A DNA stretch of 62,456 bases, filler included. It is 11 parts of 11 records of this genome, joined end to end, with 100 filler letters (N's around TTAATTAATTAA, not from the genome) between each part and the next. Parts side by side here need not be neighbours in the genome. Positions count along the whole stretch, not along the records: positions 56,524 to 62,456 come from SRR15195285_2052; 10 more parts are not named here. One strand, written 5' to 3'. Positions within the stretch are counted from its first letter, which is position 1. Each line of letters starts with the position of its first letter. Positions 27,712-62,080 of this stretch are shown one piece after another. The position numbers were made by a program, and so were the translations under genes. A model generated the notes under the pieces. The model was not told the origin of the DNA and did not search any database. It was given only the letters and a program-made list of their open reading frames with translations.

Positions 27712-27813
27712 CTNNNNNNNNNNNNNNNNNNNNNNNNNNNNNNNNNNNNNNNNNNNNTTAATTAATTAANNNNNNNNNNNNNNNNNNNNNNNNNNNNNNN
27801 NNNNNNNNNNNNN

Positions 27814-41098: not shown

Positions 41099-44000
41099 AT
41101 GGACTTCGACTCGATACCTCACGAGAGGGCGCCGGCACGCTCACTGGCGCGCTCAATGGATTTCGACGTGGGAATGGAGTCCGGGATGACAAGGGCACAA
41201 GCCGCGGACGTAGATCGTATCAACACAGGAGCTGCGGCTGCAGACGATTCACAGATAGAACAGATCCGGAACCTGTTTGCCGAAGCTGATGCAGATGGGA
41301 CTGGGGATTTAGATGTACAGGAGCTCGGGCGGGTGATCGAGCAGCTGGGAATGAAGCTTTCTCATGAGCAACTCCACGATGCCATGGGCATCTTAGATTC
41401 TGACAGCACAGGCGCAGTTTCTATGGCGAACTTCATAGAGTGGTGGATGGCGCATCATGGGAGCGGCAAGGACCAGGAAGAAGCAAGAGAACGCGCACGC
41501 GCTGCGTTCGAGGCTGTTGATGTGGACGGAGGAGGCACCATTGACGCCAGTGAACTCGCGGCATTGGCCGACAACCTTGGTCTAACGCTGTCGGAGAGCG
41601 AGTTGGCGGATGCTCTACAGGAGATGGACGCGGACGGCAGCGGCGAGATAGACATCCAGGAATTCATGGAGTGGTACATTAGCGGTGGGTCAGGATCCTC
41701 GTCTGCATTGGCTATGGGCGTTGGACTCGGGGCTCTCGGTGAACTTGGCCTTGTGGGAACGGCAGACGACATGAACCTATTTGCCGCTGCCAACGACGAC
41801 GACGATGACTCAGAAGATGAGTTTGATGCCGCAGCGGCAGCTGGCGAAATGTTTAACGATCTCATGGCAGCCTCAATGGGGGGCAGCAAGGAAATGCTGG
41901 GGCTGTCGCTCGGAATGTTTACACCAGACAACAGCTTTCGTGTCGCGTTGTCGAGAATCGTGTTCCACCCAGTAACAGAAGTTGGCATTGTAGCTAGCAT
42001 TGTTATCAATGTGGTGGCACTGCTTTTCCAGGAGCCAGGATCTGACCAGATTGAGGTAGTTTCTTTCATCAATTTTGTGTGCGGGCTGATATTCACGACC
42101 GAAATGGTGTTGCGCATCATCGTGCATGGGTTTTTCAGACACGAGGGCTCTTACTTGCGGAATGGTTGGAATGCGCTAGATTGTGTCATCGTGCTCACAT
42201 ACTGGGCTATTTATATCACATCGATATACACGAGTGTCGACAGCTCTCTGTCATCGTGCGCGACATTGCTGCGGTCGTTTCGTCTCCTTCGCTTTTTTGG
42301 TGGAGTGCGTGAAGTGCTCAGCGCTCTTGCGCAGGGCAGTTCGATGATCCTTACAGTTTCTGCTGTAATGCTGTTCTTATTTGTAGCTTTCTCGACGAGC
42401 TCACGGATGCTGTTTGGTGGCGTGCTTATGAACCGCTGTGCAGTAGACGATCCAGTTCAACGGGCTCTGGACTGTCCGTTGTGTGGAGACGAGAGGCAGA
42501 CATCAGTAGTTGGGTCCAGTGAAGCCGGTCGATGCCCGACAGTCCTAGAGTGCGGCTCCAAGAATCTGTCGTGTTTCGAGTACACACCAGATCTTGCGTA
42601 CACGTACACAAATCAGTCAAACTATGCGACTCCAAGGAGACTGGACCATATCGACAAATTTGGCTTCGGAGGGCTATTCGAAAGCTTGCTGTCCGTCTAT
42701 ACCATATCAACACTGGACGAGTGGGGCTACCTTTGCAATATGTACCGGTCCTCAGATTCGTCAACCTCGTTCCTCGCTTGGCCGGTCTTTGCTGCACTGA
42801 CCGTTCTGCTTGCACTTTTCGCGACAAACGTCTTCGTCGCAAGTGTGACCATTGCGTACATGTCTGTGCGGACGGGGGCACGTGACGATAATGCCCTAGA
42901 CGGAATTCGCGACATGGTGATGGCCAATCTGGAAAATCAGGAAGGCCAAGATGACGATGCAAACGATGGGAACGGCAGCCCCAAACGACTTGATGACGAC
43001 TGGTCTGACGACGAGGATCTAATTGCAGAAGACGATCTTACAGAAGAGCAGCTGCGCACGGACCACTGCCTTGCCACGTGCTGCAAGTACGGTCCCGTGC
43101 TGACTGAAAAATCACAAGTCATCATCACGGACAAGCGCTTTGACAATTTCATTATGGCAACAGTTTTAGTAAATATCGTCCTCATGGCTTCAGAGCATCA
43201 TATGATGCCGCAGTGGTACGTGAATGTGCTTGCCACGATCGAGGTTATCTTCACTACCGTGTACACATTTGAGGTGGCCGTTAAACTGCAGGGCATGGGA
43301 TGGCGGCGGTACTTCCGAAGCTGGATGAACCGGCTTGACTTTACTATTGTTTTCGTCGCTCATGCTGGTACCATTCTCACATACTTTGGTGAAGGTATGG
43401 ATGCTTCTTCATCGCAGAGTTTACGGATTGTCAAGGTTCTCGCTCGTCTTGCGCGCCTGATGCGTGTGGCTCGTGTAGGGAAGCTAATTTCTCGCGTGAA
43501 GAGTATCCGGACGGTGTTGAAGGTGGCGTTCGGCTCGATCCATGCGATTGCTTCGCTTTCGTTTTTGTTCATCTTTGTATGCTTCGTAGCGGCTACGATG
43601 GGCACGTTCCTCTTTTGGGAGTGCCACTCTAACCCAGATGGCTCACCACGTCGAACGGAACTAAATGGAATGAGCCTGGGCTCGCTTCGCGACTCGTTCT
43701 TTGCAGTGTTTCAGCTCGCGACAGGCGACGACTGGTCAGGATTGATGTTCGAGTACATGGAATGCTACGGCAATGGTGCTGCGCTGTACTTTGTGGTGGT
43801 CGTTTTTGTTACACAGTATCTGCTGCTGAACCTCTATATATCTGTATTCCTGGAAAACTTCCAGCTCAATGACGAGCAGAAGCGTCAGCGGCAGATTGAG
43901 CAATTCACGAAGCGTGAACTTGCAAAAATGGATTTGACTGAAGAGGGTGCGGCTCGTGCCACCATCTCAATAGCCAGCGCCACACTTAACAGGGCCAGCC

Positions 44001-47000
44001 CGATGGCTCGACTGAATCTAGATGTCACCATGTTGAGCTCGTCTCACTCGGATGATAATGCGAGTACAGTGGATCCAAACGGCAACGCCGACACAGCACA
44101 GCATCAAGGAGACTCAGATGACATGGAGGATCCAAATGCAGGTGTGGACTCGGCCGAAAGAGTAGAGCCAAATGTCGCTCTCAGTCTTTTCTCTGAGAAC
44201 CATCCATTTCGCCAGCTCATGATCAGGCTGGTGGAATCTGACGGCTTCGACAAAGTTATTGTGTTATGCATTGCACTAAGTGGTATGCATATTGCTCTCG
44301 AAGGACCAGACACGTACGAAACCTCGGGGCTTCCTGACTGGTTTCAAGCTGCAATGGCGGTGCTTGACGGGGTCCTATTCATTACTTTTTGGGTAGAGCT
44401 GCTGTGCAAGCTCATCGCGTATGGCTTCTGGAAACATCCAGACTCCTATCTGAAGCGGTCAAATTCAAACTTACTCGACTTTACAGTGGTACTGGCAACA
44501 AGTGTCGACGTGGTGCTCGCACTGATGGGTTTTTCCAGTTCGGCAAAGTTGTTTCGATTGCTGCGAGTGCTGCGGTTGGTGCGTTTGTTGCTGATTATCG
44601 ATGGAATGCAGGTAATCTTATACACGCTGTTGAAGGCTTTGCCATCGGTGTCAGCAATCTTGGCTTTGCAAGCTTCCACCTTCTTGGTTTTTGGGATCCT
44701 TGGAATCAACATGTTTTCTGGGCAGTACTACCGATGCGTAGAAGATATCAAGCTGGATCGTGTGCAATGTGAAGCGTCGGCACTGACGTGGAAGCAATAC
44801 GAGTTCAATTTCGATGATATATTTGAAGCAATGGCATCTCTCTTTGTGTGCATGACAATTGAAGGGTGGGTACAAGTGATGCGAATCGGCATGGACACAC
44901 CCTCCGGGAGCTGTGTGGACTGTGCACCGGTGCCAGACTACAGCGCCAGTGTCGCGTTTGCGTATTTCTCCAGTTTTATGGTGGTAAACGCATTCATGCT
45001 GGACAAGCTCTTTGTTGGACTTTTAGTGGACTTTTTCCAGCAGGAGAGCGGGTCTGCACTTATGACGTCTGAACAAAAGAACTGGCGGTTTATGGAGGTG
45101 ATGGCAATGCACATCGTCGACGTCGACCGCAGACCGCCAACAAACAGCAGGTGGCGAGAGGAGTGCTTCAGTCTGGCTCAATCAAGCACGTTTACATCCT
45201 TGGTCAACGTTTTCATCTTGCTCGATGTGACATCAGTGGTTGTTGGCGACAATGAGAACGTGCCTCAGATGCTGACCGATATTTTTTGGGTTGTAAATGA
45301 GACCACAATGGTAGTTTACACCTATGAGGCACTCGTTAGAATTGGCGCATACAGCTGGAGTGGGTACATATCGACTGACAAAACGCCATTTGTGATTGTA
45401 CTCATCATGTGGCTCATGACAATTCATTACAAGCTCAAGCAATTTGACTCATTTGACCCTGCTGGCTACTTCGACTGGATTCAAGGGCTCTCATTTGTTA
45501 TGATCTTACGGATGACCCGCCTCCTGTCTGCTTCCACGCAGATCCGAAAGCTGCTGAAACTACTTTGGATATCGATGCCGCAAGTTCTGAATCTGGTCAC
45601 AATCATGGTTCTCCAGTTTTTCATTTTCGGCATCTTGGGCATGAAATTGTACTTACTCCATTTATGCAGAATGCGTGCACCAAACGAGTCAATTTCGCAC
45701 TGTTGCGCACCCACTAACAGCACGCTGTGCATGATTTATGTCCGTAGGTACGGTCAGGTTCCTCTTGATGGGACAGATATCAAGACGCACGAACTGAACG
45801 AGTACAGCAACTTTCGTTCAGTTCCCTCCGCAATGATGCTTATGTTTCAGGTGGCCACAGGGCAGCCAATTCTAAAAATTGTTGAAGAGATCAAGTCTAC
45901 TGTCGGTGGCCACCCGTTTGTGTTCTTCGCTACATTCTACATCTTCTGTAATATGGTTCTACTGAACCTGTTCACCGCGTTGTTGATGGACAACCTCGAT
46001 CTGATGGGTGCAAGCGACTTTGGCATTACGGATGATGATGTTAGATGGTTCCACAAACGCTGGCATGACTTCGGGCTGTACGTATCCGATGAAATTGAGA
46101 TGAAGGATCTCAGAGGATTTGTCGCCGGTATTGGGCGGTCGTTTGGCGTAGTGACTGCCGCAGACAGGCACTGGTACAAGCGACTGTTGCTCGACCTGGA
46201 CGTGCCGCCGGACGAGATGGACGGCACTTCCACCCGCTCATTCAGTTTTCACCGGGTTCTGCTGTGCCTCTGTCATCTGCGGTTCAATTCAGCCTGTTTG
46301 CCGTACGAGCAGGAGGTCGCCGAGGCTGCTAAGTCTGCACATATGGCAAAAGAGCACGGTGCACGTGTGATAATGATCTTCTGGCGTGCGTATCAATCAA
46401 AACGGAACATGCCAGATGATTTGCAGGCAAGTGAACCCTCGTGGAAGCTGGCTGTGGAGTGCGCGCGGATGCTGTCGTTGGATACTGTCAACCGTGTCTT
46501 TAAATTGAGCAACATCGAAGTGGTGGAGAAGAAAACAAGCAATCTTGCGACTGCAATGGAACTGATGTCAGGATGGTCCGGGCCTGAGATTGAGGGCGAA
46601 GAAGACGGCAAGGTACAGTTGGACGAGCTGGGCGATGAGCACCTCGAAAAACTGGCAGAGGGTGACGCAGAAGCACACGAAATGTTACTTGCACGCATGG
46701 AAGAGATTCACCAACAGCGGATCAAGGTGTCCGGGGGTATTGGGACGTGGTGCGTTGGTGGAAAACTAGTTGGCAAGCCCTTTGAAATCGCGCAAAAGTT
46801 CGTTCTGTCCTTGGTCCTACCAGTTGTGGTGTACGCACTCTTCTACGTTCTCATCCAGATCATCGGGGAGCATCACATGTAAGAGATCACGGATACTCCT
46901 TGCCGTGCTCATAAACGACTCAATGGAGTGGAATGGTTCTAACACAAGTGATCTCTGTCTGCTGCTGTTGCCTCTGCTTGTGGACGCAGGAATGTGTTCA

Positions 47001-50000
47001 GTCCAGCGTTCTTAATCCTTGTCATATTTCCCACGGCGAGTTACATTGGATGCTGCTATATCGTTGCACAGTACTTCTTAGTGCCGTCTTTATTCTCCGC
47101 GCGGCGACAAATGCTAATGTTCAGTTCGTGGGCTGGGATAGCGAACTATGGCGCGATTCTTTACGGGCTCACAGACGAAGGGCGACAGTACTGCCAGTAT
47201 CTAGCAGTGCTCAATAATTCGGCGTACGTAACACAAATGTCCTGGCAGGTCACAGCAACGTACACTGCATTCAGATTTGTAGCGCTTGACAAGTTGCGGG
47301 TGAAAGGACCATGGCGGGTGCTGTTGCACGTTTTCAATTGGGGGGGAGGTTTTTTAATGACCCTCGGTCTGTTCCATCTGAAGCGCGAGGCTTTCCATGA
47401 AAGCCTAGACGAACTGAACGGTCTCGGCTGGTGCGGAGTGAGGGGTGATCCAGAATTCATGTACTGGAAGCTGTTCTTCATCCTCATTCCACAGCTGATA
47501 GGCGTCTCGGTCTACGCATTCTGCTTTTCGTACATTATTGATGTGGTTGACCCACCTGAGACAACAGTGATGCGGCGGTCAGCAGACGATTCACGCGTCA
47601 GTACGAGTCATCATGAAGACCTGCTACACGCTAGCACTGCCAAGCAAGCAGTGGCAATGGCTCGTGCTGCAGATCGTATCAAGCTGTACTTGACAGGGTT
47701 CATGCTTAGCTATCTGACAAACACGCTTCTGACCATTTTCTTGGAGCGGGAGAAGAGAGACGATGAATGGACGACATTTGACTACTTAATCTGTGCGGCT
47801 GTTGTGACACCGCAGCAGGCATTATACGCTCGCGTTTTCAATAGTGGTGGCAACAGCGGTATTGTGTCTAGTCTGGCAAGCTTCCACAAATCATCGATGG
47901 TTTCAACGTCTGGTTCAGTGGTGTCTAGCATCAACAGCATGGCAACGTCGTATAGATGGGTGCAGGTGCTGCAGGCGAGCGTGGTAGGGCAGACAGTGAC
48001 AGTCCAGGTAAAATCTTCAGTCACTTTAGCCACATCTGCTTTCGAAGGGACTTTACATGAGGCGAGTCGGAAGACAAACCAGGCGGTACAAGCTAAACCG
48101 AAGAACCCCTGGGCAGATCACACGGCTGTTGTGTTCGTGATGTCTTACGTGCGGATGGTCTTCCAGTGGGTGTTCAACATTTGGCAGGCATGTGTGATGG
48201 TCCCTGTTTCTCTGTGGGTCTGGACTCCAATTGAGTTCATCAAGGAAAATTTTTCAACCGAGCCTATCAAGGTAATGGCGTCACTGCTTGCATACGGTCT
48301 CTTCTTGCTGGTGCCAATTTTCTACTTCAGGACAAATGAAGGAGAGGATGGCAGCTTTGCCAATACCACCATTTTCGAGCCCGTCCAGCAGGAGGATCTG
48401 TGGGACAGACGCGCAAATGGCCCTGTCGGCGTATTCAGCTACATGGTAACGATCTTCCTCATTGGTATCGCTGGTATGTACGTCAACCGGTTTAGTTTTC
48501 ACTTGCTCGTCATTGACGGACCGCGCGATACCATGCGCATGACCAAGAAGAATGGCCTTGGAGTGTACACCCTGGCAGTGGAGTGGATGCAGGTAGCCAT
48601 GATTGCCGTCACCGCATGTGGGCTTGTGCAACGATACCGTAACAGCACTTCAGACAACTCTGAAGACGAGCTTTCGCTTCGACAGCTGATCATTGGGCTT
48701 ATTCTGGACAACGTCTTCTACATGCAATACTGGGCATCCTTGTTCGCAGTCGTGGTCTGGGCGTCCTGTTATGCAGGACCTAACATCGTGGAGAAGCTCT
48801 ACTCGCGGAAACGAGCGAAAGCGTTGCAGCGCAAATTTGGTGTGATCTATGTCGTGCTGTCGGGACCTGGGTTCTTGACAATCATGAAGTCGTTGATGAA
48901 ACCGTTATTCTGTACCTACTCTGGATCAGATATCCAAAGCAGTGTAGTTCTGAAATTCTATTTTGTGTCCATTCTCGTTCTAAACCGCGCATGTGCTGGC
49001 TGTGGCAGGCATCTATGATCCAACTTCATATGCATTCCCAGTTGCAATCGCTGACAAGGACCTTCAGTGCTGGACTCAGGAGCACCTGAACATTGTCTGG
49101 CCTGCACTTTGTGCTCTGTGCGTCTACTTCCCGTCTGCAACTCTTACAACGGCGATTAAGTACTCGCCGGAAGAGGATATTCGATATGTGTTCTTGTACA
49201 ATCGCTTGGAGTTGATTACGAAAGGTCTAATGCTGTTCTTGTCCTTGAGCTATGCAAATGAGCCCATAATTGGACTCTTCTGCCTACTGCTTGGATCGTG
49301 CGTCGTCATCATGGCGCTCCACTACATGAGACCGAGTTGTCAAAAGCTTGCAATGCGATGGAAGTATTTCGTACACTGCAGTAATATCTGGACGTGCTTG
49401 ACATGTATCGGTGCACTGCACTTTCAGATTGATCACACCAACTGGCAGTACCACTTGCAAGCAGCCGGTGCCGGGTGGGGAGCAATCTTCATATTATGGA
49501 GCTTGAATATCTGGCGCAACGAACAGCAGGACGTAATGAACGCACCGGTAGACGAGCCGACAACTAGTGCGCGCGCATGCAGGGAGATTGATCAGCTGCG
49601 GCACGATATCGGTTATGTAACTGGGCCACCAGCGTGGGGCAAGCACGCCTTGATCCTTCGTTTGCTTGAGTTTGCGGCACACGAAAGTTTGACTGTTCGA
49701 GTTCGCGCGTTTGAGTCGCTGGCTGTGCTGTCATATTGGGACCACATCACGTCGGAGGCATTCTTCATTGAGATGACGCCAAACACAGCAATGCTGCTGG
49801 TGATCAATGCCATTACCACAGAGCAAGACCAAACTCTCCTCATCTTTGCAATTCGCGTTCTTGGTGCCTTTGTTCGTGCAGAGCTGCACATCAAAGAGCT
49901 AAGCAGATTTATAGAACAGGACAATGGCGTGAACTTACCACAGAGCATTGCCAAGCTGGCGTGTTCTACATGTCGCCGTGAGTCACAAGTGGACTGCATG

Positions 50001-51655
50001 CAGACTATCTTGGCAATCACGTACGTGGACAGCAACACACTCGATGCTGTCGCAGAGCACTGCATACCAATGCTCGCAGAATGGGCACAGAAGGGCTCGC
50101 TCATTGAGCAGCATCTTGCAGCTGAGATATTCATGCTGATCTCTGGTCGCTTTGACCATACATCCGAGCTGATCGCACAAGGAGCGCTGCCAAAACTGGT
50201 GTCTCTGTTCATGTCGGTCGATGACATCGAGGTTAACCCTAAGTCTCTCAAGGTAAACAGATCCACTGGTTTCAGGTCTGGCTGTTTACAGCCAGAACGT
50301 GCGGTGGTGATGGCGCATCAGGTGCCACACAATTTGCGCCAAGCTTTCCAGCGGATTTACCCACGTGTGAAGCACATTTACCACGAAAAGGATGATGAGT
50401 CGTACGAGCAAACTGCGCACAGGGCAGACCGGCGGGAGTGGGGTGCCTGGGTAAACTCTGGTATGCCGCTGGCGATAGAAATCAAACAAAAACTGACGGC
50501 GCGGGAATTCGAAGGTGTCTCGAGGGTCAAGTCTGCGGGAGTAACGCGCCAGCATTTGAACGAACTGTTCGATATCATGTACAATGGTAGCGATGCTGGC
50601 TCGTCGAATCTCACTGAGGGGACACTGGATGGTAGGACAATAGCCACGTTTCTTTCTGGCTATGGTCTGGGTGACACAGATGATATTGAGAAGGTCTTAT
50701 ATGACACTGGTATCTACCAGCATGGTATCGGCGAAGTTGATGACAACGACATGCAAGAAGAACTGCCACGGGAGCTGTTTTGCCGCTGGTTGCTCATGTC
50801 TATGCCCGACACGGATGCTTTGATGCAGGGCCAGGAAGTTGACATGGGCTCTCTCGCACTCCGTGTTCTGCAAGAGTGCATGCCACACTCACGCGATGCT
50901 GATTGTGACACTACTCTGCTGAAGCGTGATGTAGAAAGCTTTTACGATGAGATGCAGAGCGCATGCTCCACTGGGGAGAACCCTGAAGCCAAGGAGATAG
51001 TACTGTGTATAAGCCACGTTGCTCGATATCTCGTGGAGAGCAAACAGTTGGGCATTGGTACGTGTGATGAGGTGGAGAGTGCCATGACGATTGAAATCAC
51101 CGCAGGCGAGGCTGATGTTGACGCGCATGTGCAGCTCAGTACATTGCAGCTCCAAATTATGAAGGACGAGATTACCAAAGCGACAGTCCACACATTGACA
51201 GAGATAGCCATGGCTCAGGGTGCGCAAGGACGCGCAGATATGGTTGATGGTGGTGTCCTTGTAATTATTTCGCGATGTTTCAAGCTGTTCAAGCCACCGG
51301 AAGTGCACGCCCTCGCCTTGAATATGCTACACGCACTCATGAACGGCCGCTTTTCTGAGAAAGATATAGCTCACGATGCCGACCTGATTGGCTTCTTCAG
51401 CGAGATCAACGAGTACAAGGCGCAGCTAGAACGGGATGAGAATGCGTCGCCACTTTTGAGATTCGAAGGGCTCACTGCGCTTGAGCGTCGAAAAGCACAC
51501 ATGATGGCAGCTTTCCTTGGCATGTACCATCGATCGATCGGTTCTCCCGTCAACCGCAAGGTGATTGTCTCGCAGATGCCTATCACCGAGGACATAATTT
51601 GGCAGGTCGTTCGTGCGGATACAGACGATGACGAGGTCGATGACGAGGTCGATGA
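41099..51655 (+). CDS. Giant fusion protein: 4 EF-hands + four-domain voltage-gated cation channel + IQ + cAMP-receptor-like 7TM + second TM bundle + ARM-like repeats + R3H; 4 exons, more than 3416 aa, 3-prime partial
   Basis: Exons 41099-45648, 45748-46878, 46990-48911 and 49009-51655 splice in frame through GT-AG introns of 99, 111 and 97 bp. Four S4/pore repeats have P-loops TLDEW, TGDDW, TIEGW and TGQPI. The channel identity is near certain; fusion across the introns is predicted. The start may be at 41156 or 41174. Confidence 0.85.
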
Positions 51656-51974
51656 NNNNNNNNNNNNNNNNNNNNNNNNNNNNNNNNNNNNNNNNNNNNT
51701 TAATTAATTAANNNNNNNNNNNNNNNNNNNNNNNNNNNNNNNNNNNNNNNNNNNNATTCGCATCTCTTCTGCCGAAGGGTTAACTCTAATTGAATAAACG
51801 AGGGTGGATTATCAGGTGTGCACGAACAGGTCAGTGAGGTCATGAGAACACCGGTGCGAGCGGCGACGGTGGGCGCGGGGCGGAGGCAGCTGGGCAGCTG
51901 GACGGGAAGCCGGGCACGCAAGGCTGCTGGCACGCAAGGCTGCCGAGGGGGGTGGTCGGCCCGCAGCTGGCGAG

Positions 51975-54190
51975 ATGTCCGGGGTACGCGCCGGTGCACA
52001 GCTGGACGGCCTTGCGTGTGGTTTGGTGTGTGTGCGTGTGCTGACTCTCGGATCGTGTGCAGTGTGACCTCTCGCAGCTGGAGGACGCGGTGGAGCAATG
52101 CGCAGAGCTTATGGGCGGCAGCACGAGCTGCGAGGAGCTGGGGGAGGGTATAGTGGAGGAATCAGCGGTGCGTGGCGCGCGTGCTCTACCTGTGCCAGTG
52201 GCGAAGCTGCTGTGCGGTGCATTTGGATGTATCAAATGTTGCCGTGCCACAGGCGCTTGCTCATCCACTCACGTGCTCGCTCACGTGCAACAGGAGGCCC
52301 TGGAGGAGGAGGCGATCTTGCTGCACTACGGCTTCTTTCTCATGACACTGATGTTGACGCTTGGGGTACGTGCTGGTGTTCAGACATGCACCTCGATCCC
52401 TTCGATGCGTGCGACTGACATTGCTGTGCTCGCGAACACGCCGCGTGCAGTTTCTCGGCGGATACGTCTTGGAGAAAAAGCACTTCACGTACATCCACGA
52501 GGCTGGCGGCCACCTACTTATTGGGGTGTTCTGTGGGCTGGTCCTAAACCTTCAGTTCGGTCACTCGCACGAGAGCAAGACAGAGCGGCAGCACGAAATG
52601 ATCAATGTTGCGCGATTCGATACAGAATTCTTCTTCCTGTTGCTGCTCCCACCTATCATCTTTGAGGCTGGGTACAACATGCAGCGTCGCAAGTTTTTCT
52701 CCAACATCGGCGCAATCTGTATGTATGCTTTTGTGGGCACCTCCATTTCAACCATCCTCATCGCCGGGACTGTGTATCTCTTCAGCCAAGCATCTGGAAA
52801 GGACGGTGTCTTCGCAGCTACCTCAGACGGAGAACCGTTCAATGGACTCGAGTCACTGATATTTGGTGCTCTGATTTCAGCCACAGACCCTGTGACGGTT
52901 CTGGCGGTGTTTGGCGCCATGGGTGCCGACTTGAACCTCTTCAGCTTGGTATTCGGCGAGAGTGTGATGAACGATGCTGTTGCTATCGTGCTGTACAAAG
53001 CCCTCGATGGCTTCAACCCGTCCAGGTGTGGAGATTCTTGTGAGGTGACGGGCTCGTCCATCACGGCCGCTTTCGCGAACTTCATCTACATTTTTGTCGG
53101 CTCGGTTGTTGTAGGGACCGCGATTGGGCTCATTTCAGCGCTTCTATACAAACATGCAACGATGTACGAGGAGGATTTTGAGCATATCGAGATGATTCTC
53201 TTGGTGTTGTTTCCGTACATGTCATGGATGATGGCGGAGGCCTTGCAGCTCAGTGGCATTGTTTCTATTCTGTTCTGCGGTATTCTGATGGCACATTACA
53301 CTACGCACAACCTGTCGCCGGAAACAGAACTGTTCTCGCGGCGCTTCTTCAAGACCATGGCATTCGGATGCGAGTCTTTCGTTTTCATCTACATGGGCCT
53401 GGCAACATTCACCTACGAGCAAGACTGGGACCATTGGCCTATCATCGTCGTGGCCATTATTGCAATTTTGGTGTCGCGCGTGTTCAACGTCTACCCGAAT
53501 AGCTATATGGTCAATCTGTATCGCTCAGAAGAGAAGAAGGTTCCTATGTCTTTTCAGCACATCATGTGGTTTTCGGGCCTCCGTGGCGCAATTGCTTTTG
53601 CACTGGGCCTTGAGGCGGCAGAAGGATATGCGGTTCGGGCTGATACTGACTCGCCGGGCGCAGGGCTGTGTATACTCACCATGACGTTGAGCATCGTTAT
53701 ATTTACGGTATTGGCGATGGGCGGGTCTGTGTACACGGTGCTGAACTACTTTGATACTCCAGAATGCTCAGTGTTTGAGGGGCCGCCGGCTGTCGAGAGC
53801 GCAGATGATGGAGGGAAGTCTGCTGCTGACGACAGCAAGGCGCTTGGGTTTGACCGTAAATGGTTTAAGCCATTTTTCACGTGGCGATACCAGGACGAGA
53901 CGAAGACTACTGCATCAGAGAGGTGTGTCACATCCCCTGTTAGCGTGGCTCGTCTTTCTCGTCTACATGGCGTGAAAACACCTTCCCTCCTGCTCGATTT
54001 TTCGTGTCCACTTGATCATGCAGTACACTGTGTACATTGCAGGGATCCACGCTGGTCGTCAACAAATAAATCCGGTGATATTAACCGCAGCCATAGTCAC
54101 GGCAAACCGGAAGCAACGGCGCGCCCTGTCGGTGATGGAAACCCCGAGTCTGAGGGCGAGACGCAAAGCCTCCTTACGACAAGTGTCTGA
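51975..54190 (+). CDS. Na+/H+ exchanger, CPA1 family (NHE8/NHX-like); 5 exons
   Basis: Motifs FFFLLLLPPIIFEAGY, FGALISATDPVTVL, VFGESVMNDAVAIVL and WFSGLRGAIAFAL. Predicted exons 51975-51983, 52063-52167, 52294-52365, 52451-53922 and 54043-54190 are all in phase. Confidence 0.93.
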
Positions 54191-54412: not shown

Positions 54413-56167
54413 TTAAGAGCGGCTCTGGAGCTGCCTGCTCAAGTCATTTTCTAGAGAGCTTTCCGTCGAGCCTAATATCGAGCTTGCCGTCCTAAGTGCT
54501 TGCTGCAGGCGCACTTCTGCCTGCTGCCATCTCCCACTAATGGTGTGCAATTGCAACGACTTCCCGTCCATCAACGGTGTGGAGGTTTCAGATTCGAGTC
54601 TAGTAGCCGCTGCGGCAGCACCATAGGCAGGTACTCGCCATCCACCCCTACTTGCACTGCTACTCCCAGCTGCACTGGTAACATCACCAGTTCCGCTTCC
54701 ACTGTGCGCGAAATTAGCTGTATCTGCTGTACCATTGTCAGCGCGGGCAGCCAATGGATTTTCTACATCTTCGGCATGCAGCTCGCCCAAGACATCGGTC
54801 ACCATCATACAGTGCGGTAAGGCCGATATCGTGATGCCAGCTTGCAAGGCGGCATTCGTTCTGCTTGCAGCTTGTGGTGCTGCGGTCTCCGCGACGTGTG
54901 TGTGTGTTTCGTCAATGAAATTTGCAGCGTGGGTATCAACGTGCTTGCCTGTGTGCTTCCCTCTACCTTTCGGCGGGCGATGAGATGCCTTTTCACGAAG
55001 CGTGTCAGTGATTTTAGTTCCCACGGTGAGCATCTCGGCAGCTGATTCACATTTTCCCAAGCGTTCACGCTCCTCCACCACAAACATGATTACCTCGTGT
55101 GGACTCACTGCCAAGCACTCGACACTACCACAATCAGTGCCAGATAAAATGACAGCCCCTTCCCGGTATGCCGGTGGATGGTGGCTCTGCTGCAGTACCA
55201 CGCTGCACCTTACTGCATAGCCAACAGTTGGACCACTCATATGGTCTGACCTATGTTCACCAGCTGCGGTGATGCTCACCTCACACTCACTCAGGCATGC
55301 AGCCAGGCACGCATGAGGCCCACCAGTTAGGGCAATTTCTGGGGCCTGTGAAACCAGCTCGGCACAATGTGCCTGCCGGTTCTGCCCCAATTGACCACGG
55401 ACTCGCCGCTGCGACGGTGGACCCCCAGCCATGCTTGCCTGTGCAGCAGCTGCACCGCATAATATCCCCACCAGCAAGAATCGCTCTATGCATTCGGATG
55501 GCACCGCGACGTACCCTTCTGCTCGCCAAGAACGTAGGCTGCCGTCTTCGGCTTGGCATGAGGCGACCAATGACCTTTCTAGTGTCAGGTTCGTCACGTT
55601 CCACCGCTCGGTAACCACTGCTGCCTTAGCCACTTGACTGCGACCCGAATGGATGATTGTGGGAATTGGAACAGCAATCGAGCGTGACACCGCACCTCCG
55701 CGTCCAATGATATCCAATGGCAGTAGCAGTGAGTGTGGCAGCAGCCGTATTCCGGCCTCCTCTTCGCCGAACAGTGCCAGCAGCTGCAGTCGCTTCCGCG
55801 CAGCTCCTACCAGCAGTCGCCGCCTGAATTTTGCTGCCTCGCGCTCTGTCTTTCGTTCATTTTCGCGTAGCTCTTCGCACAACAACGAGTGCATATAGAG
55901 CAGCTCACCACGGACGTCCTGTTCAAGTGCCAAGATCTGGTCACTAAGCAGCTGTGCAACTCGAGTCGCCTCGGCAGCCTCGCCCGCCAGCGACTGCGCG
56001 GCTCGCAGGCGCTGCAGCTTCGTTTCGAGCGGCCATGAACTGTGTCCACCCTCTGAGATGAGTGCGCGCTGGCGCGACAACGCAGCGCGTTGGCGGCGTA
56101 CGCTGGCTAGGGCGACTGCCAACGGCGCTGGCGTGCCGCCGGTCGCAGACCCGGGGTGTGATGCCAT
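54413..56167 (-). CDS. Hypothetical protein with N-terminal coiled coil
   Basis: Single long ORF with ATG at 56167, convergent with the exchanger gene; no family recognised. Confidence 0.6.
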   Translation of the reverse strand: MASHPGSATGGTPAPLAVALASVRRQRAALSRQRALISEGGHSSWPLETKLQRLRAAQSLAGEAAEATRVAQLLSDQILALEQDVRGELLYMHSLLCEELRENERKTEREAAKFRRRLLVGAARKRLQLLALFGEEEAGIRLLPHSLLLPLDIIGRGGAVSRSIAVPIPTIIHSGRSQVAKAAVVTERWNVTNLTLERSLVASCQAEDGSLRSWRAEGYVAVPSECIERFLLVGILCGAAAAQASMAGGPPSQRRVRGQLGQNRQAHCAELVSQAPEIALTGGPHACLAACLSECEVSITAAGEHRSDHMSGPTVGYAVRCSVVLQQSHHPPAYREGAVILSGTDCGSVECLAVSPHEVIMFVVEERERLGKCESAAEMLTVGTKITDTLREKASHRPPKGRGKHTGKHVDTHAANFIDETHTHVAETAAPQAASRTNAALQAGITISALPHCMMVTDVLGELHAEDVENPLAARADNGTADTANFAHSGSGTGDVTSAAGSSSASRGGWRVPAYGAAAAATRLESETSTPLMDGKSLQLHTISGRWQQAEVRLQQALRTASSILGSTESSLENDLSRQLQSRS

Positions 56168-56523
56168 TGCCGCCACGGCCCGCAGCTTCGCTAGCTAGAG
56201 CTAGGAATCCTACTCGGTAGTGTAAACGCGTGCCCGCGCAGGGGTTTTCGTAGCGATCGATTGGCACACGTTGAAGGTAGCGGCGTGCTGGCACCAGTGC
56301 TCGATCGCCTGTGGTCCATCGCTTACCATCGCTCCATCCGCGGACGCGCGGAGTGTGCATATATAGCTGCATACTGATTCCCGGCATGACAACATGATTT
56401 CGCGGGAAAAGCGGAAACCAGCANNNNNNNNNNNNNNNNNNNNNNNNNNNNNNNNNNNNNNNNNNNNTTAATTAATTAANNNNNNNNNNNNNNNNNNNNN
56501 NNNNNNNNNNNNNNNNNNNNNNN

Positions 56524-59500
56524 TCCTGTGCCTTAGCTCTGGTAGATTCCTGTTCCTGTCGCGCTTTCTTGTGTCGCGCTTGACGCAGCATCTGTACCTG
56601 CTCGTTGTGCACCACAATCTCCGCCTGCACATGCACGGTGCACTTGTCAGACTGAAGGTATTCTGCAGAGCCCGTGCTTGTCATCAAGCAAATTCATGCG
56701 ACCCAGAGCTGACTTACATGTGTGTAGAGTGCTGAGACTGCAACCGGGAAGCTACTCCAGGCACCTTTGTTCCAACACATCCATTCATCTGCAACTGGTA
56801 TCTCTCCGTCTGTTTCGCAGTAAGCCACAGCAGTAGTGCTGCCCTTCGCAGACAGGTGCCACTCGCGGTCACCGACACAGCGAAACAGCACTTTGCCGTC
56901 TACAGAGCTCCAGCGCGGCCATCCATCCACTGCCCCATCTGGCAAATACACGGTGTTGAAATCGACTTTCGGCACGCCTTCGACAAAGACACCTACCGTT
57001 CCTTCGAATTGATGCGCTGCCATGCGACGCTCCTCGTCTTCGTTGCCAGTTCTCTGTTTCCGCGCCTTCTTCGTCGTCTTCTTCTTCTTCGCGGCTTTCA
57101 GTTTCTCCCGCTGCATCTCTGCGTTCTTAGCGCGCCGCTCAGCAGCTTTAGCAGCTTTGAAAGCGGCATTCATAGCTCTCGCGCGAAGTTGTGCTGTCTG
57201 TCGCCGGCCCAGGTATCCACGGAACAACGACTGAATATTAGTGGCGGCAGTAAATTGCTCAGCATTTGCACGCTCTTCCGCTTCCAACCGGGCGGTCTCC
57301 GCTGCCTCCTGAGCCGCTTGCAGCGCTGCCTCTTCCTGATCTGCACGTTTCTTGCTAGCAACAACTTCTGCTCGTAAAGCTTTAAACCACGCTCTCATGA
57401 GGATAAGTGCGTACGAAGACAAAACTTCCTGTGAGTGTGAGGCAACAGCGGACGCCTCCTCGTGAAACGATGCAAGCTCCTGGTCCAATGAGTTTAACGT
57501 CATCGCCTTTGCAAAAGACTTCACGGCCGCATCGTAATCGCCACGTTCCATCTGGTTGTGCCCTGACCTTTTCAGCACAGCAGCAGTCCAGTATTGCTCA
57601 GCCTGCTCCTGTGCAGCTCGGATTTTTGTGTTCTTTGGATCTAAGTCCCGAGCCTTAGCCAGCGCGTGAGCAGCTTCCTTGAACTTCCCTCCCGTAAGCA
57701 AAGTATGTGCATCATCAAGTAGCATCGGTACACGGCAGCGTCTTTCCACCTTGTCACGGGATTTTCTATAGCGCATATGATCTGGCACGAGCTCTGATAC
57801 TTTTTCCCAAGCCGCAAGAGCTCCTGCGTAATCTGACCTTGCTTCCAACTCGCGACCCCTTTTCGCCCATTGCGATGCTTCATGTTGGCGTTTCCTTCTC
57901 TCCTCGATCTGTGCAACTCGATCAAGCGCTTCCTGGCCAGCGACGACTACAGCTTTGTCCTTCGCATAGCTCAGCTCGAACTCTTCCTGCTCAGCTGTGG
58001 ACCACTGAACCGGCTCGCTATCATCACCTTCGTCTTCTTCTTCGTCCTCGTCCTCTTCATCTTCGGCCTCGTCTTCCTCCTCTTCATCCGTCTCGGGAAG
58101 CCCTGCCATAGCTGTTGTCAAACCGAAGTCGGGACACCGGATGTAGACCGTTTCGTCCCATTCGTACGGAAGATTCACAACATAACCAGGCTTGCCAGCA
58201 AATGCAGCACCATCTCTCGACCAGGAACCGAGGGCATCGCAGACTCGCCACTTTGCACGCAGCTCATCATAAGTTGCTACTTCGACGTCCATCCCAACTA
58301 TGCACGTGTCCCTGGCGAGCTGTACACCGGCTGCTGTGAGCGAAGCGATGGGAACCCAGCCCTCAAGAAGCTCAACTTCCTCCTCAGATGAAGAAGGTAT
58401 TTCTGCAACTGGGTCACTAGCGTACACGGCCCGGTACCTAGGACGCTGCACTGACGGCAGCAGCTCGCCAAACCAGTTGAGTACAGCATCTTCCTCTTGT
58501 CGACACCACTCGGGGAGTGGAGTTATCAGCTTGATTGACTGGTGAGCATGTTCACCCAACGTGGGTACTCCGGGCTGAAGAGACTCTAGCAGGTCACGAG
58601 CAGCTTTCTCCTTGTCTTCCAGACCCGCTATGGTGGCAGAAACTTCTGATATCTCGGTTTCCAGCCTCGTCACTGCCATCGTGAATGCTTCCAATTGTGT
58701 CAGTGTCTCGTCGGCATCCGTGGTGGGCATTAGTAGTCCTTCAGCACCAAGCCGCAAGAGTTTCTCGCCGTACTCTCGCAGAAACCAAGTACTGAATTCC
58801 TCAAAATCAATTTCGTTGTTTCCATTGGTATCCACTGCAGCAAAGACCTCAGCAATATCCATGGATTTAACCTTCTCCTCACCTTCGAGGACCAGAAGTA
58901 CAGCCAGCAACTCGCTGTGGTCCAGCACGCCGTCCTCGTTGCCGTCCATTTGTTTCCACACCATTTGTAGCAGCGACATTTGTGTGCTTTGGAGCTCTTT
59001 TTGAACATCTCCTTTTGGCCTCAATGCTTCCAGTTGTGCCGTAATCTCATTTTTCTTAGCCGACGCCATATCCAAGTCCGCAGTTAGTGCAGACACTCTT
59101 TCGTCCGCCGCTAGCACTTCTATTTCCGTCTGCGCAACTGCGGCTCGCGCAGCGTCCAGGTCGGCTTGCATCTTTGCAATCTCTTCTGGTGACCCCAACT
59201 GCACTGCTTCCAGGTCCTTCTTCAGTTGTTCAGCGCTCGCAACCACCTCCTCATGGGTTCGAAGCGCTGACAATTTGGCGGTAGCGTCAGCGTGTTGCTT
59301 GGTCACACTATCTCGCTCACTTGTTTGTTTTTCAAGCATTACCTCGACGGCAGGCAGCGCCGCCTCCAGCTCACCAAGTCGTTTTCTAACCGTCGCAATC
59401 TCTTCTTTCATCTTGGCAATGGTCTCTGGTGACCCTACTTCAATCTGAGCCATGGCGTCCTCGTAAGCCTTGTGTTGCTCTTCCAACGCCAAGCGCAGCC

Positions 59501-62080
59501 GTTCGACCTCATCCGTGAGTGGCCGACACTGCCGCAAAGCATCCGCGTAAGAAACCTGAGCCGTCGCCCAGGTACATAGCGGTGATGCTGCCTTCGAGGC
59601 CCGTGCAATCTTCTCCGGCTTGAATGCCTCGTTGGATAGGTATGACTTTTTAAGCAAGTCTGTTGCTTTTTTCTTCACTTTGTTTGCATCGAGCTCGAGA
59701 ACGGACTCAATAAAGCCTTTCTGAACAACCTCCTTCCGAATTTCGGACCACTCCATTTTTCCTTTTCCCAACAAGATCATCACGGATTCCATTGTCAGCC
59801 GAACCCCTTCAGGTGGCTTCAGCATAGCCTTCATCTCGTCCAGCTGGGAAGTCTTGATAGACTTCACAGCCTTGGACGCTGCATCAACGATCGGTTGGAG
59901 ACTCTCAAGCTCAGCCTTGACCTCTTCTCGACGGGCCGCGATCTCCTTCTCCGCCTGATCCAGCTCTGCTTTGAGCTTCTCGGCTTTGAGGCGTCCAGCC
60001 TCAGCAATGGCTTCTGCGTTCTCGATTTCATGAGAGAGACGCTCTTCTTCACTGCGACTATGTGTCTCCTGTTCTCGCAGTTCACCCAGGCGACTTTCGG
60101 TAGCAGAAACTGCCGCGGAGGCAGCTGCAGCCATCTCGGCAAGCCTCTGCTGCTCCTCTTGCGCCTTCACAACGAGCCTCTGTTCCTCCTCAACCGCAGC
60201 CAGTGCATCAGACAACTGTTCATGGCGCCTCTTCGAGGCTTCGGCGGATGCCTCAGCGTCCTGCACTGCCGCAGCCAGCCGATCTTCTTCTGCACGGCCT
60301 TGATCCTGCTGTGCGTGCAGTCCCTCCCGCCGCTGAGTTTCTTCCGCCAACGCCGTTTCTGCCTGCGTGAGCGCCTGATCCGCTGCAGCTTCATCGGACT
60401 CACACTGCATCACACGGCCCAGGTCGCCCTCCAAGCGTTTCACTTCCCCAGCAAGGCGCGCAATCTCGTTGCGGGCTTTCGCAGCAGCGTCCTTGTCAGC
60501 ATCTACAGCAGCTTTGTAGTCCGCCAAAGATGCTCGTGCGTCATCAAGTGAGCGCTTCCGCGCCTCGAGCGCTGCCCGTTCCTCTGCCAGGCGCCTCTTC
60601 AGCGTGTACAACTCTAGAACCACATTGATTACGTCTTCTCTTAGCTCTACGTCGTCTGGTACCGACTCCACACTTTCCTCGCCATCCGATTCTCCAGGTG
60701 TTGGTTCATAATGCATTATCAGCTTCATCACTGTATCTGACAAAGAGATCACCTCCGGCTCTGGCTCCGGTGGAACCAAGCGCTGCTTTGCCTCGATTTC
60801 ATGTGCGGCAAGCTCTTGTGCGATGTGACGCTCGACATTTGTAAAGATCGATCCACCGTCTAATGTTTCCGGGTTTTCCCAGATTTCCTTGGTGTGACGG
60901 CCCATCCGGATATGGCGTTTGCGCAGGGCATCTAGTAAGGATGGTGGACGGGGCTTTTTTGCCTCCGGTGGGACAGGCAATGTCTTGTGCAGGTTCGGCC
61001 CAATTATCTCGACTGTGGTGGGGTTGCGCGTGGTGAGCATCTGGACTGTGGTCGGGCCCATCGCGTCTGCTGGGTCCTCCACGCCGTACGATGGCAGGCG
61101 AAACTTTGATCGTGCCGCCACTTCCACGTTGGCTGCATTGAGGAGCTTGTAGTGACCCGCGGCGAATTCGTCCTCTGCATCCGAGATGGCACGCTTCACA
61201 ACCTTTAGTCTGCTGTGTATATCGTCATGCAAATCTTTTGGGTTCTTATTCAGCGTAGGCTCCTTGTAATCCAGCTTGAGGAGCGGCCTGCCCAGACTGT
61301 GAGCTACCTCCATCTGCTGCACAATATCCTCGGCGGCAGACGCTACCATGGCATGCTCTGGGGACATTTCCGGCGGTCCCGCCGGTGGCGATGCCTGTGC
61401 ACGGGCAGCAAAAGCCCCGCCACGCCGCGCATAGGCTTGGGCCTCCTTACTTTCGCCAGAGTAAACTTTTGCCAGGTGCTCGCTGACCAAATCGCGGGTA
61501 AAGTGCTCGCCGTACGCGCATCTCGCCTCGACAACTGATCCGAACAGTGCCTTGCCGTCCATGGCCGCTGCACTTGCGTCAGCATCTGCCTGGTGCTTGA
61601 AGTCAACGATGGCACAGTGCAAACTCTTGGCAATGGTGTCTGCCGTCCCAACTGCGGCCTGTCCAGTCGGCGCAACTGGCACACTGCCGATCTTCGCCAT
61701 GCAGACCGCAACGACCGGGCCGAACGCACCACATGCCTGTCGCAACTGGTCCTCCCCTACAGCGCTATCCAGCCCTCGTAGAACCACCGAAAAGCACCTC
61801 TCCTGGTCCTCGGCGCGCTGTACGAGGGTCTCCACTTCGGCCATGCGCGACTCCTCCGCAATCGCATCGGCCAGCTCCGACTTGAGCACCTTTGCCGCGC
61901 GGCGGTCCTCCTTCTGTGCCGCTGTAGGCGGCGCTTTGTAGCGAGCGCGGACGGCCATCTTCAAGGCTGAATTAACCACCACCCTCGTTGAGCTCCAGCG
62001 CAGCTGATGCTTTCCGCACCATTCCTCATCGTACCTCGCACTATCGTACTCCACTGGTCCTGTCTATCGCGGGCGCCCAT
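56524..62080 (-). CDS. Motorless multidomain protein: RRM + dynein heavy-chain stalk/MTBD + EF-hand pair + TPR + IQ; probably 3-prime partial
   Basis: 1786-aa ORF with RRM at about 61515-61795, MTBD at about 59505-59912, EF loops DGNEDGVLDHSE and DTNGNNEIDFEE, TPR-like helices at about 57450-57870 and IQSLFRGYLGRR. Probable introns at 61967-62034 and 56625-56717 keep the frame and extend it to the contig edge. Confidence 0.85.

Follow-up and report, generated by a model that had tools for sequence, protein, structure and literature searches.

A dynein-type microtubule-binding stalk joined to predicted calcium-binding and docking domains in a protein without a motor

The locus described here raises the question of what a dynein stalk may be doing in a protein that carries no dynein motor. 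It lies in a window of 62,456 nucleotides (the whole stretch of DNA analysed), in which contigs are chained by N44-TTAATTAATTAA-N44 linkers, and its source is an uncultured marine protist. Position 56524 is the first base past such a linker, and the whole open reading frame (ORF) sits inside a single contig piece, 56524-62456. The ORF listing gives one ORF only on the minus strand, 56694-62054, with 1786 codons counted from a GTG at 62054 and a TGA stop codon at 56694-56696. The frame stays open upstream of an ATG at 61958 as far as this GTG, just 5' of which an in-frame stop is found. The ATG at 61958 (residue 33) was chosen as the likely start because the first residue of P0003, an orthologue, is the Met that corresponds to it. 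Residue numbers are counted from the GTG throughout; the peptide cited in the original prediction corresponds to residues 715-846 of the translation. The gene and the parts of its product, from the N- to the C-terminus, are as follows.

56694..61958, minus strand: coding sequence, conserved ATG through TGA stop, 1754 amino acids plus stop (orthologue alignment)
61806..61922, minus strand: N-terminal helix, approximately residues 45-83 (AlphaFold2 secondary structure, model helix 13-51)
61509..61799, minus strand: domain with the RRM fold, residues 86-182, in which an inserted loop separates strands 2 and 3 (Pfam, model, Foldseek)
60645..61508, minus strand: linker of 288 residues, partly helical, with conserved Pro-rich and acidic stretches (model, alignment, Pfam)
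59895..60644, minus strand: stalk strand CC1 (outgoing), residues 471-720, with a conserved junction proline, LQP, at its end (model helices, dynein homology)
59520..59894, minus strand: dynein-type microtubule-binding domain (MTBD), residues 721-845, of cytoplasmic type, without flap insert (Pfam, phmmer, stalk alignment)
59019..59519, minus strand: returning stalk strand CC2, residues 846-1012, opening at a junction proline, RPL (phmmer, model, stalk alignment)
58782..58970, minus strand: EF-hand pair, residues 1029-1091 (Pfam EF-hand_7, 41 bits, cut-off 30)
58581..58697, minus strand: helix 3' of the EF-hand pair, residues 1120-1158 (second AlphaFold2 model, helix 21-59, pLDDT 65-79)
58101..58574, minus strand: conserved middle domain, residues 1161-1318, fold unassigned (71 of 158 columns invariant)
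58005..58100, minus strand: acidic low-complexity stretch, residues 1319-1350 (translation, alignment)
57420..58004, minus strand: TPR-like helical repeat, residues 1351-1545 (model, Foldseek, sub-threshold Pfam)
57204..57236, minus strand: IQ motif IQSLFRGYLGR, residues 1607-1617 (regular expression IQxxxRGxxxR)
56697..57014, minus strand: C-terminal Trp/Cys-rich, beta-rich domain, residues 1681-1786, family unassigned (alignment, model, Pfam)

The stalk and MTBD are homologous to those of dynein, and the original prediction was right that the MTBD follows the cytoplasmic heavy chain and that the flanking coiled coils resemble CC1 and CC2. The Pfam family MT (PF12777), named for the microtubule-binding stalk of the dynein motor, matches residues 696-931 over profile positions 64-281 of 344, with an E-value of 1e-10 and 41.6 bits, above the gathering cut-off of 24. 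Searching the PDB sequences with phmmer returned 86 distinct sequences at E <= 0.01, and the best 60 of these 86 are nearly all named dynein heavy chains or dynein-MTBD chimeras. The top match is a cytoplasmic dynein (1.1e-35, entries including 3vkh), followed by the mouse dynein-1 stalk 3wuq (1.1e-33), full-length cytoplasmic dynein 1 heavy chain 1 (2.7e-30, e.g., 5nug), a second entry named 'Dynein heavy chain, cytoplasmic' (1.9e-23, e.g., 9di3), dynein-2 (2.4e-16), and the axonemal dyneins (6e-15 or weaker). At the sequence level, the Pfam match and the PDB dynein stalks identify the MTBD-tipped antiparallel stalk that characterizes dynein. With the dynein-1 heavy chain (DYNC1H1; 3wuq, 5ayh, 3vkh, 3j1t), homology extends over approximately 260 residues (E 1e-35 to 1e-30), and the order CC1, proline, six-helix MTBD, proline, CC2, with no flap insert, is shared. 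In the stalk alignment, both junction prolines are retained, together with the dynein-1-like blocks KPPxGVxLTMESV, WxEIRK, and RASKAxxPLxxWAxAQ.

Nevertheless, several features depart from DYNC1H1. The stalk strands are longer and unequal (250 residues for CC1 vs. 167 for CC2), and because CC1 exceeds CC2 by about 80 residues, the stalk geometry cannot be a plain copy of that of dynein. CC2 also contains two helix breaks, each at a GSPE motif (residues 874-877 and 954-957), which none of the 79 stalks that are not motor-less, among 88 aligned, shares; at the first of these sites, G[ST]PE is present in six of the 88, every one motor-less. CC1 is modelled by AlphaFold2 as helices at residues 473-665 and 670-732, and its homology to dynein starts at around residue 659 in the phmmer alignments. 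The model that includes the stalk has a mean pLDDT of 56 and a pTM of 0.24, with most of the MTBD under 50, and does not resolve the hairpin. Beyond the EF-hand pair, the helix at residues 1120-1158 may continue the stalk.

The motor is absent. A Pfam scan of the whole protein at E <= 1 gave no AAA family, the Walker A pattern [AG]xxxxGK[ST] does not occur anywhere in it, and neither DHC_N1/N2, Dynein_heavy, AAA_lid_11, nor Dynein_C was matched by Pfam, domains of a kind that true dynein fragments do give in the same analysis. The earlier claim that no AAA+ or Walker motif stands beside the stalk was thereby borne out by both searches. The six AAA+ modules with AAA1 Walker A/B motifs and the linker/DHC_N2 and C-terminal domains that define a motor dynein are not found and, unlike DYNC1H1, the protein has no linker, AAA1-6 ring, buttress, or C-terminal dynein domain. 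In the same ORF, the stalk is preceded by 470 and followed by 770 residues that are not AAA sequence, so the gene is no mere piece of a dynein gene.

Four metagenomic orthologue clusters, 73, 72, 66, and 41% identical to this protein and 1685-2087 amino acids long, have the same architecture; counts over five orthologues comprise this protein and these four. Pfam MT is matched at E <= 0.01 in all five (best E 1.6e-11). The MTBD is the most constrained region, with 80 of its 125 columns invariant (64%), compared with 4-44% in the 15 other regions, and in the most distant orthologue it is 73% identical vs. 42% overall. Residues 471-1095, i.e., the stalk and the EF-hand pair (about 625 residues), contain no gap in any of the five, while gaps are many in the N-terminal regions and in those after the EF-hand pair. 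Such a gap-free stalk fits a hairpin whose strands would have to stay in register.

On the N-terminal side, a weakly conserved helix precedes the RRM, whose predicted presence is supported at the level of the fold. RRM_1 (PF00076) scores 21.3 bits on the whole protein (cut-off 20.7) and 31.2 bits (E 2e-7) on the isolated segment, and it is matched at E <= 0.01 in three of the five orthologues. The model has the beta-alpha-beta-beta-alpha-beta order, with pLDDT in 10-residue blocks of about 65-84 on the structured elements and below 50 in the inserted loop. RRM domains dominate the top Foldseek matches and make up four of the five with E <= 1e-3 (TIAR RRM, 3e-4), with TM on target of 0.6-0.8 for single-domain targets. 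The linker that follows has no family match in Pfam.

The EF-hands had been predicted within the CC2-like region, and there they are: on the CC2 side, the models show long helices before and after the pair, which lies some 167 residues away from the MTBD. Its loops, DGNEDGVLDHSE and DTNGNNEIDFEE, both have 12 residues and are canonical (D1, N/D3, D/N5, E12), with acidic or amide residues as predicted Ca2+ ligands. EF-hand (PF13499) is matched in 5/5 orthologues, and both loops keep the ligand pattern in all of them.

The middle domain could not be placed in a Pfam family (DUF6907 came closest, E 0.018), its Atlas leads are all under 0.8, and its AlphaFold2 model has pLDDT values below 50 and little regular structure. 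The suggestion of a Mind-bomb-type SH3 repeat is supported neither by this model nor by the Pfam searches: SH3_15/MIB (MIB-HERC2) gave no match when the whole protein was scanned at E <= 1, nor when residues 1161-1318 were scanned by themselves at E <= 10. The acidic stretch shows a spike in read depth that comes from cross-mapping reads of other organisms. The predicted TPRs may correspond to a TPR-like helical repeat, which the fold model supports: TPR_1 scores 26.4 bits, under its cut-off of 27.8 (it is matched in 3/5 orthologues), the model gives paired helices with pLDDT of about 85-94 over most of the region, and Foldseek returns 49 matches at E <= 1e-3 (best 2e-5), topped by designed TPRs, Hop, FKBP51/52, and SGT, these top matches having a TM on target of only about 0.1-0.4. 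The IQ motif is an exact occurrence of the consensus, conserved in 4/5 orthologues (missing in P0005), although Pfam IQ (PF00612) stays below its cut-off (17.5 vs. 20.3 bits). The C-terminal Trp/Cys-rich domain is absent from the most distant orthologue.

Taken from the sequence, the protein is probably a non-motor, microtubule-associated anchor or scaffold, in which docking domains take the place of the ring on a dynein-type stalk and MTBD. As in dynein, residues 471-1012 would form a long stalk of antiparallel coiled coil, with the cytoplasmic-dynein-type MTBD at its tip docking on the microtubule lattice. The far end of the stalk would carry, instead of an AAA+ ring, the RRM-fold domain on the CC1 side and the EF-hand pair set into the CC2 strand, as well as the conserved middle domain, the TPR-like repeat, the IQ motif, and the beta-rich C-terminus. 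The role of these docking parts would be to keep partner proteins at a set distance from the microtubule. As candidate partners, the IQ motif might recruit calmodulin- or centrin-like light chains, and the TPR-like repeat might bind peptide clients; RNA is a possible but less likely partner, and Ca2+ on the EF-hand pair may modulate the assembly. A wider motor-less group is in keeping with this reading: in the careful tree, the family and four other proteins that are AAA-less by Pfam (P0037, P0140, P0121, P0086) form one clade (support 100/98), which adjoins the dynein-1 stalks.

Seryl-tRNA-synthetase/MTBD (SRS-MTBD) chimeras, which are among the PDB matches (3err, 3j1t), likewise place an MTBD and part of the stalk on a non-AAA+ base. 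These chimeras bind microtubules, with an affinity that depends on register. An MTBD lacking the ring could still bind. They are, however, laboratory constructs with a short fixed coiled coil, whereas the present gene occurs naturally, is conserved, and encodes the stalk at full length together with further domains. Other non-motor anchors of microtubules that use long coiled coils, for instance the NDC80 complex, are alike in principle: cargo is kept at a distance by a small globular head that binds microtubules and is carried on a long coiled coil. Their sequence and fold are unrelated, and NDC80 uses calponin-homology domains.

Two other functional readings appear about equally improbable. 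The first, put forward in the original prediction, is that of a Ca2+-switched tether between RNA and microtubules, in which the RRM holds RNA or an RNP, and Ca2+ at the EF-hand pair shifts the stalk register and toggles MTBD affinity, replacing the AAA+ ring. The register of the stalk coiled coil sets MTBD affinity in dynein, and the canonical EF-hand loops of all five orthologues, roughly where the ring would sit, the strictly fixed stalk length, the SRS-MTBD chimeras, and the supported RRM fold are all in keeping with such a tether. The RRM itself speaks against the RNA part. In canonical RRMs, the aromatics that stack on RNA occupy the third and fifth positions of RNP1 and the second of RNP2. 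Here, RNP2 reads VVLRGL and RNP1 (K)SLHCAIVDF, of which L145-F152 (LHCAIVDF) is invariant in 5/5 orthologues, and the residues at the stacking positions are Val (RNP2) and Cys and Ile (RNP1), also in 5/5. The RNA reading is thereby weakened. RRMs without stacking aromatics often bind proteins, and UHM domains occur among the Foldseek matches of the segment. Furthermore, the related P0037 clade has neither EF-hand nor RRM by Pfam, so the stalk module can do without them.

The second reading, that the stalk-MTBD has been re-used for a non-microtubule partner or as a rigid spacer, in a coiled-coil scaffold unrelated to microtubules, draws on the tree and on the MTBD itself. In the careful tree, the family lies outside all 30 sampled dynein-1 stalks (98/79), on a long branch. 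The sister motor-less group, the P0037 clade, has lost both junction prolines, and in this family one H1 lysine is replaced: the residue aligned with the second lysine of the dynein-1 motif IKK is Thr in 5/5 orthologues. Against this stand the conservation of the MTBD, the highest in the protein, and the retained dynein-1 blocks of helices H1, H3, and H6, which are the helices that contact tubulin in dynein.

Read data bear on the integrity and expression of the gene. Metatranscriptome contigs tile the ORF without a splice joint, most long pieces being at least 99% identical; run X8 covers 26 of the 30 bins and run X18 covers 17. RNA libraries can contain DNA; the gene is likely expressed. None of the metatranscriptome contigs joins the RRM to the MTBD or spans the gene, so a single transcript is supported by the continuity of the ORF rather than by a read. 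An independent DNA run tiles 30/30 bins, one of its contigs (59330-60507) linking the MTBD with both stalk strands. As predicted, the RRM and the MTBD share one ORF and one contig piece, and because this order of domains recurs in four independent metagenomic orthologues, misassembly is unlikely. The assembly comes in fragments (3.4-11.4 kb per contig piece across the window), and no single independent sequence record covers the whole stretch. Even so, it is highly improbable that the feature is an artefact, whether a chimeric contig, what is left of a decaying dynein gene, or a single exon block from a larger one, in view of the intact 1754-codon frame, the orthologous ORFs on other contigs, the strong and uneven conservation, as under selection, the independent DNA coverage, and the non-AAA sequence directly beside the stalk in the same frame.

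A full-text literature search found no description of such motor-less dynein-stalk proteins. In the sequences analysed, the P0037 clade has the stalk in common with this family, and P0037 itself also has a GTPE motif. The MTBD is also found outside a motor in tandem arrays of 2-5 copies (P0028, P0031, P0066, and others), which differ in having no long stalks and in standing elsewhere in the tree, and in P0171, whose MTBD is joined with a dehydrogenase domain. None of these proteins brings together an RRM, an EF-hand pair, a TPR-like repeat, and an IQ motif. On the preferred reading of an anchor or scaffold, a natural gene has kept only the microtubule-gripping stalk of dynein and joined it to calcium-binding and docking domains.

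The protein encoded in the last contig piece of the window carries a dynein's stalk and microtubule-binding domain (MTBD) on a base that has no motor. The Pfam MT model matches residues 696-931 (numbered from the GTG at 62054) at 41.6 bits (cut-off 24), and a search of solved-structure sequences yielded 86 distinct matches at E <= 0.01, so that the proposed dynein stalk and MTBD are well supported. The dynein match spans about 60 residues of CC1, the outgoing stalk strand (residues 471-720), the entire MTBD (721-845), and some 70 residues of the returning strand, CC2 (846-1012).

Matches to the protein in the solved-structure sequence search
'Dynein heavy chain, cytoplasmic' (entries including 3vkh), E 1.1e-35
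Mouse dynein-1 stalk (3wuq), E 1.1e-33
Cytoplasmic dynein 1 heavy chain 1, full-length (e.g., 5nug), E 2.7e-30
Second 'Dynein heavy chain, cytoplasmic' (e.g., 9di3), E 1.9e-23
Dynein-2, E 2.4e-16
Axonemal dyneins, E 6e-15 and weaker

Both of the prolines between which a dynein MTBD lies are present (LQP and RPL), and the blocks KPPEGVRLTMESV, WSEIRK, and RASKAASPLCTWATAQ remain near their dynein-1 counterparts. In helix H1, however, the IKK of the mouse dynein-1 stalk is replaced by IKT in all five sequences of the family (the window protein and its four metagenomic orthologues). The flap insert is absent, whereas it is present in P0006, the sole non-cytoplasmic dynein stalk that was aligned. 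Pfam detected no AAA family in the protein, and a Walker A pattern search over its length found none, in agreement with the original prediction of a stalk without a motor. Since 470 and 770 residues of other sequence flank the stalk in the same frame, a dynein-gene fragment can be ruled out. The predicted N-terminal RNA recognition motif (RRM) and the MTBD do belong together, both lying in one uninterrupted open reading frame (ORF) on one contig piece.

This piece runs from 56524, the first base past the last linker, to the window end, and holds one long ORF, at 56694-62054 on the minus strand. Conservation across the orthologues begins at a Met, residue 33, and one orthologue starts exactly there; the gene was, therefore, taken to run from the ATG at 61958 to the TGA at 56694-56696 (1754 aa). 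Eleven contig pieces make up the window, and pieces across a linker are thus not genomic neighbours. Each of its ten joints, between separate contigs, is a linker of the form N44-TTAATTAATTAA-N44.

Linkers of the window (44 N, TTAATTAATTAA, 44 N)
6008-6107, linker 1
13687-13786, linker 2
18050-18149, linker 3
24219-24318, linker 4
27714-27813, linker 5
31286-31385, linker 6
36121-36220, linker 7
40114-40213, linker 8
51656-51755, linker 9
56424-56523, linker 10

The remaining pieces also hold long unbroken ORFs, close-packed on both strands, which is consistent with a compact, intron-poor eukaryotic genome. Compactness also shows in the roughly 220 bases that separate the convergent ORFs at 52361-54190 and 54413-56176. 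An Rfam scan of the window gave no match.

Other ORFs of the window
18521-22258, plus strand, 1245-aa ORF with DUF5054 (E 4e-16)
41099-46882, plus strand, 1927-aa ORF for a four-domain voltage-gated cation channel (Ion_trans in four stretches, E 1.8e-132), with EF-hands at its N-terminus
48993-51707, plus strand, 904-aa ORF with a weak R3H match (25.3 bits, slightly under the cut-off of 26.8)
52361-54190, plus strand, Na+/H+ exchanger (E 1e-65), convergent with the next
54413-56176, minus strand, 587-aa ORF matching no known family

A giant-virus origin of the gene is unsupported, as 87 pattern matches in viral contigs included no relative. Among metagenome contigs, a single 2-kb locus matched, over residues 38-256 only, and is too short to provide context.

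The stretch is present in 19 of the 23 public runs listed, from 16 studies, nearly all with marine or seawater labels and one with a rhizosphere label. Four runs were mapped: the DNA run tiles 30 of 30 bins, two metatranscriptome runs tile 26 and 17 of them, with most long pieces at >= 99% identity, and a further RNA run (X19) covers only 6, chiefly in the acidic repeat. ORF stretches devoid of RNA contigs (e.g., 60682-61077) have no bearing either way on expression. No splice joint was found within the ORF in these four runs, the only joint being a 53-base slip (a back-step) that the DNA run shows within the acidic repeat. Over this repeat (58005-58100), depth rises sharply in each of the four runs (to 2768 for DNA, versus about 5-10 elsewhere), and the mapped pieces have many loose ends, since reads from the acidic repeats of other organisms accumulate there. 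Expression of the gene, as one transcript, is likely; no single record spans the whole gene in the four mapped runs, and DNA may be present in RNA libraries.

The four orthologue clusters (73, 72, 66, and 41% identity; 1685-2087 aa) comprise 23 member sequences, all metagenomic and lacking informative names. MT and EF-hand are found in all four orthologues, in unchanged order. The MTBD is the most constrained region, with 80 of its 125 columns invariant (64%), versus 42-44% in the adjoining stalk segments and 4-44% in other regions; even the 41% orthologue retains 73% identity there. From CC1 through the MTBD and CC2 to the EF-hand pair (residues 471-1095), the alignment of the five sequences is free of gaps, as would be expected if both strands pair in a defined register, whereas the N-terminal regions and those past the EF pair show many gaps. 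One further protein, P0175 (904 aa, from a 10-kb metagenomic contig), shares 49% identity with the entire C-terminal half, its ORF starting at the equivalent of residue 1118, directly past the EF pair; P0175 is either an independent gene for this half or an ORF that an intron or frameshift has interrupted.

For the phylogeny of the stalk, reference rows were labelled via the solved-structure searches (P0051, P0082, and P0141 as dynein-1, P0077 as dynein-2); P0084 carries a Pfam dynein-2 marker. Near-identical cluster members (P0007-P0025) were left out beforehand. A careful tree, an unrooted IQ-TREE analysis of 263 columns, was computed from 50 of the 88 stalk rows: all motor-less and all dynein-2 sequences, P0006, the tandem-MTBD protein P0089, and 30 of the dynein-1 group. 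It unites the family with the P0037 group, a sister motor-less clade (support 100/98), and places this clade on the dynein-1 side of the dynein-2 split (98/86), outside the 30 dynein-1 rows (98/79). By contrast, an MTBD-only FastTree (168 rows, 156 columns) groups the family weakly with the dynein-2 clade (SH-like 92), and a quick stalk-plus-MTBD tree of the 88 rows leaves its position unresolved. The careful 50-row placement beside dynein-1 is trusted over these two, although the matter is not settled. The module is judged to be of the cytoplasmic-dynein type and closest to dynein-1; it represents either an early split or fast evolution.

Other proteins also carry the MTBD apart from a motor. 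An exhaustive HMMER search with residues 640-940 returned 2555 matches at E <= 1e-3, four of them at E <= 1e-30, and 26 of the best 150 were scanned with Pfam. Seven of these 26 are parts of genuine dyneins and have AAA domains; the other 19 show none, although some of them are short, possibly fragmentary sequences. A fragment is excluded for several, namely P0037, P0140, P0121, P0086, P0026, about ten tandem-MTBD proteins, and P0171. Stalk and MTBD are common to the first four, P0037 (1624 aa) having a GTPE motif where the family has its first GSPE. The metagenomic P0026 (869 aa) has two full stalk-MTBD units in tandem and no AAA domain, and groups with the dynein-2 stalks (100/95). The roughly ten tandem proteins, with two to five MTBD copies and neither an AAA domain nor a long stalk (metagenomic P0028, P0031, P0066, P0128, P0062, P0080, P0068, P0119, and P0089), occupy a separate part of the MTBD tree, alongside the non-cytoplasmic dynein P0006. 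The metagenomic P0171 (646 aa) combines a dynein MTBD (residues 248-379) with the NAD-binding domain of a D-isomer-specific 2-hydroxyacid dehydrogenase (436-608).

What replaces the motor in the window protein is partly recognizable. The RRM_1 model matches residues 86-182 with 21.3 bits in the whole protein (cut-off 20.7) and 31.2 bits (E 2e-7) in the segment alone, whose AlphaFold2 model follows the order strand-helix-strand-strand-helix-strand, with a pLDDT in blocks of 10 residues of about 65-84 on the structured elements. Its top Foldseek matches are mostly RRM domains, some of them protein-binding UHM domains, and the RRM fold is thus upheld. The positions at which canonical RRMs have their RNA-stacking aromatics are Val, Cys, and Ile, which are invariant across the family. 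The EF-hand pair (residues 1029-1091) scores over the Pfam cut-off and is present in all five sequences, with the canonical ligand pattern in both loops. In the AlphaFold2 model, it is predicted to follow the last long helix of CC2 and to precede another helix of 39 residues, which makes the original description of EF-hands inserted within the CC2-like region a fair one.

Further along, residues 1351-1545 are the sole confidently modelled stretch of the C-terminal half (pLDDT about 85-94 over most of it). For the TPRs proposed for the protein, this stretch is a TPR-like candidate: its Foldseek likeness is to TPR proteins (49 matches at E <= 1e-3), although the TPR models of Pfam fall slightly under their cut-offs. 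A putative IQ motif is also present, as an exact IQxxxRGxxxR in four of the five sequences. A suggested Mind-bomb-type SH3 repeat, on the other hand, found no support: the middle domain (residues 1161-1318), 44% of whose columns are invariant, matched no family and was modelled without confidence. Pfam searches with the linker, the middle domain, and the C-terminus, each isolated, gave nothing usable. In the ESM Atlas, the whole protein had no usable match, and the middle domain drew leads only at 0.75-0.76, which is the chance range. AlphaFold2 models from five-sequence alignments were of low confidence (pLDDT 56 and 57), and the models resolved neither the hairpin nor the middle or C-terminal domain.

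How such a protein would work can be sketched from these parts. The stalk would fold into a hairpin some 25 nm long or longer, given 167-250 residues at an assumed 0.15 nm or so each; the MTBD would bind the microtubule lattice, and the far stalk end would hold partners. A preprint (10.1101/590786) describes the dynein-1 MTBD as 'permanently primed' for binding, only H1 shifting with the register, and on that account a ring-free MTBD is a plausible binder. Docking-type domains lie at both ends of the protein, and a competent-looking EF pair sits distally on the returning strand. The reading that we consider probable is that of a non-motor microtubule anchor or scaffold. The full reading as an RNA tether with a Ca2+ switch appears improbable. 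Similarly doubtful is a register allostery decoupled from ATP hydrolysis, in which the EF pair set into the returning strand would drive that allostery and Ca2+ would toggle the MTBD, with anything bound at the RRM, TPR, and IQ end released or captured. If the Ca2+-switched reading were true, the sister clade and the tandem-MTBD proteins would place this protein in a broader, so far undescribed class of microtubule-associated proteins of protists, assembled from the dynein MTBD.

To our knowledge, the dynein MTBD and stalk have been treated as exclusive to dynein heavy chains, and their behaviour has been examined as a product of the AAA+ ring. In full-text searches of the openly accessible literature, no motor-less dynein stalk or MTBD protein was found described. 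The MTBD itself is already known; what is new, to the best of our knowledge, is a non-AAA base with EF-hand, RRM, TPR-like, and IQ parts. Taken with its sister clade and the tandem-MTBD proteins, the family suggests a group of microtubule-associated proteins in protists, none of which was found described in the full-text literature searched. A conserved, probably expressed natural protein with stalk and MTBD on a quite different base shows that this module can exist alone. The protein is a naturally occurring analogue of the fixed-register chimeras that have been engineered, and offers a direct way of asking how a stalk behaves without ATP: what its default affinity is, and whether other inputs, such as Ca2+, may move its register.
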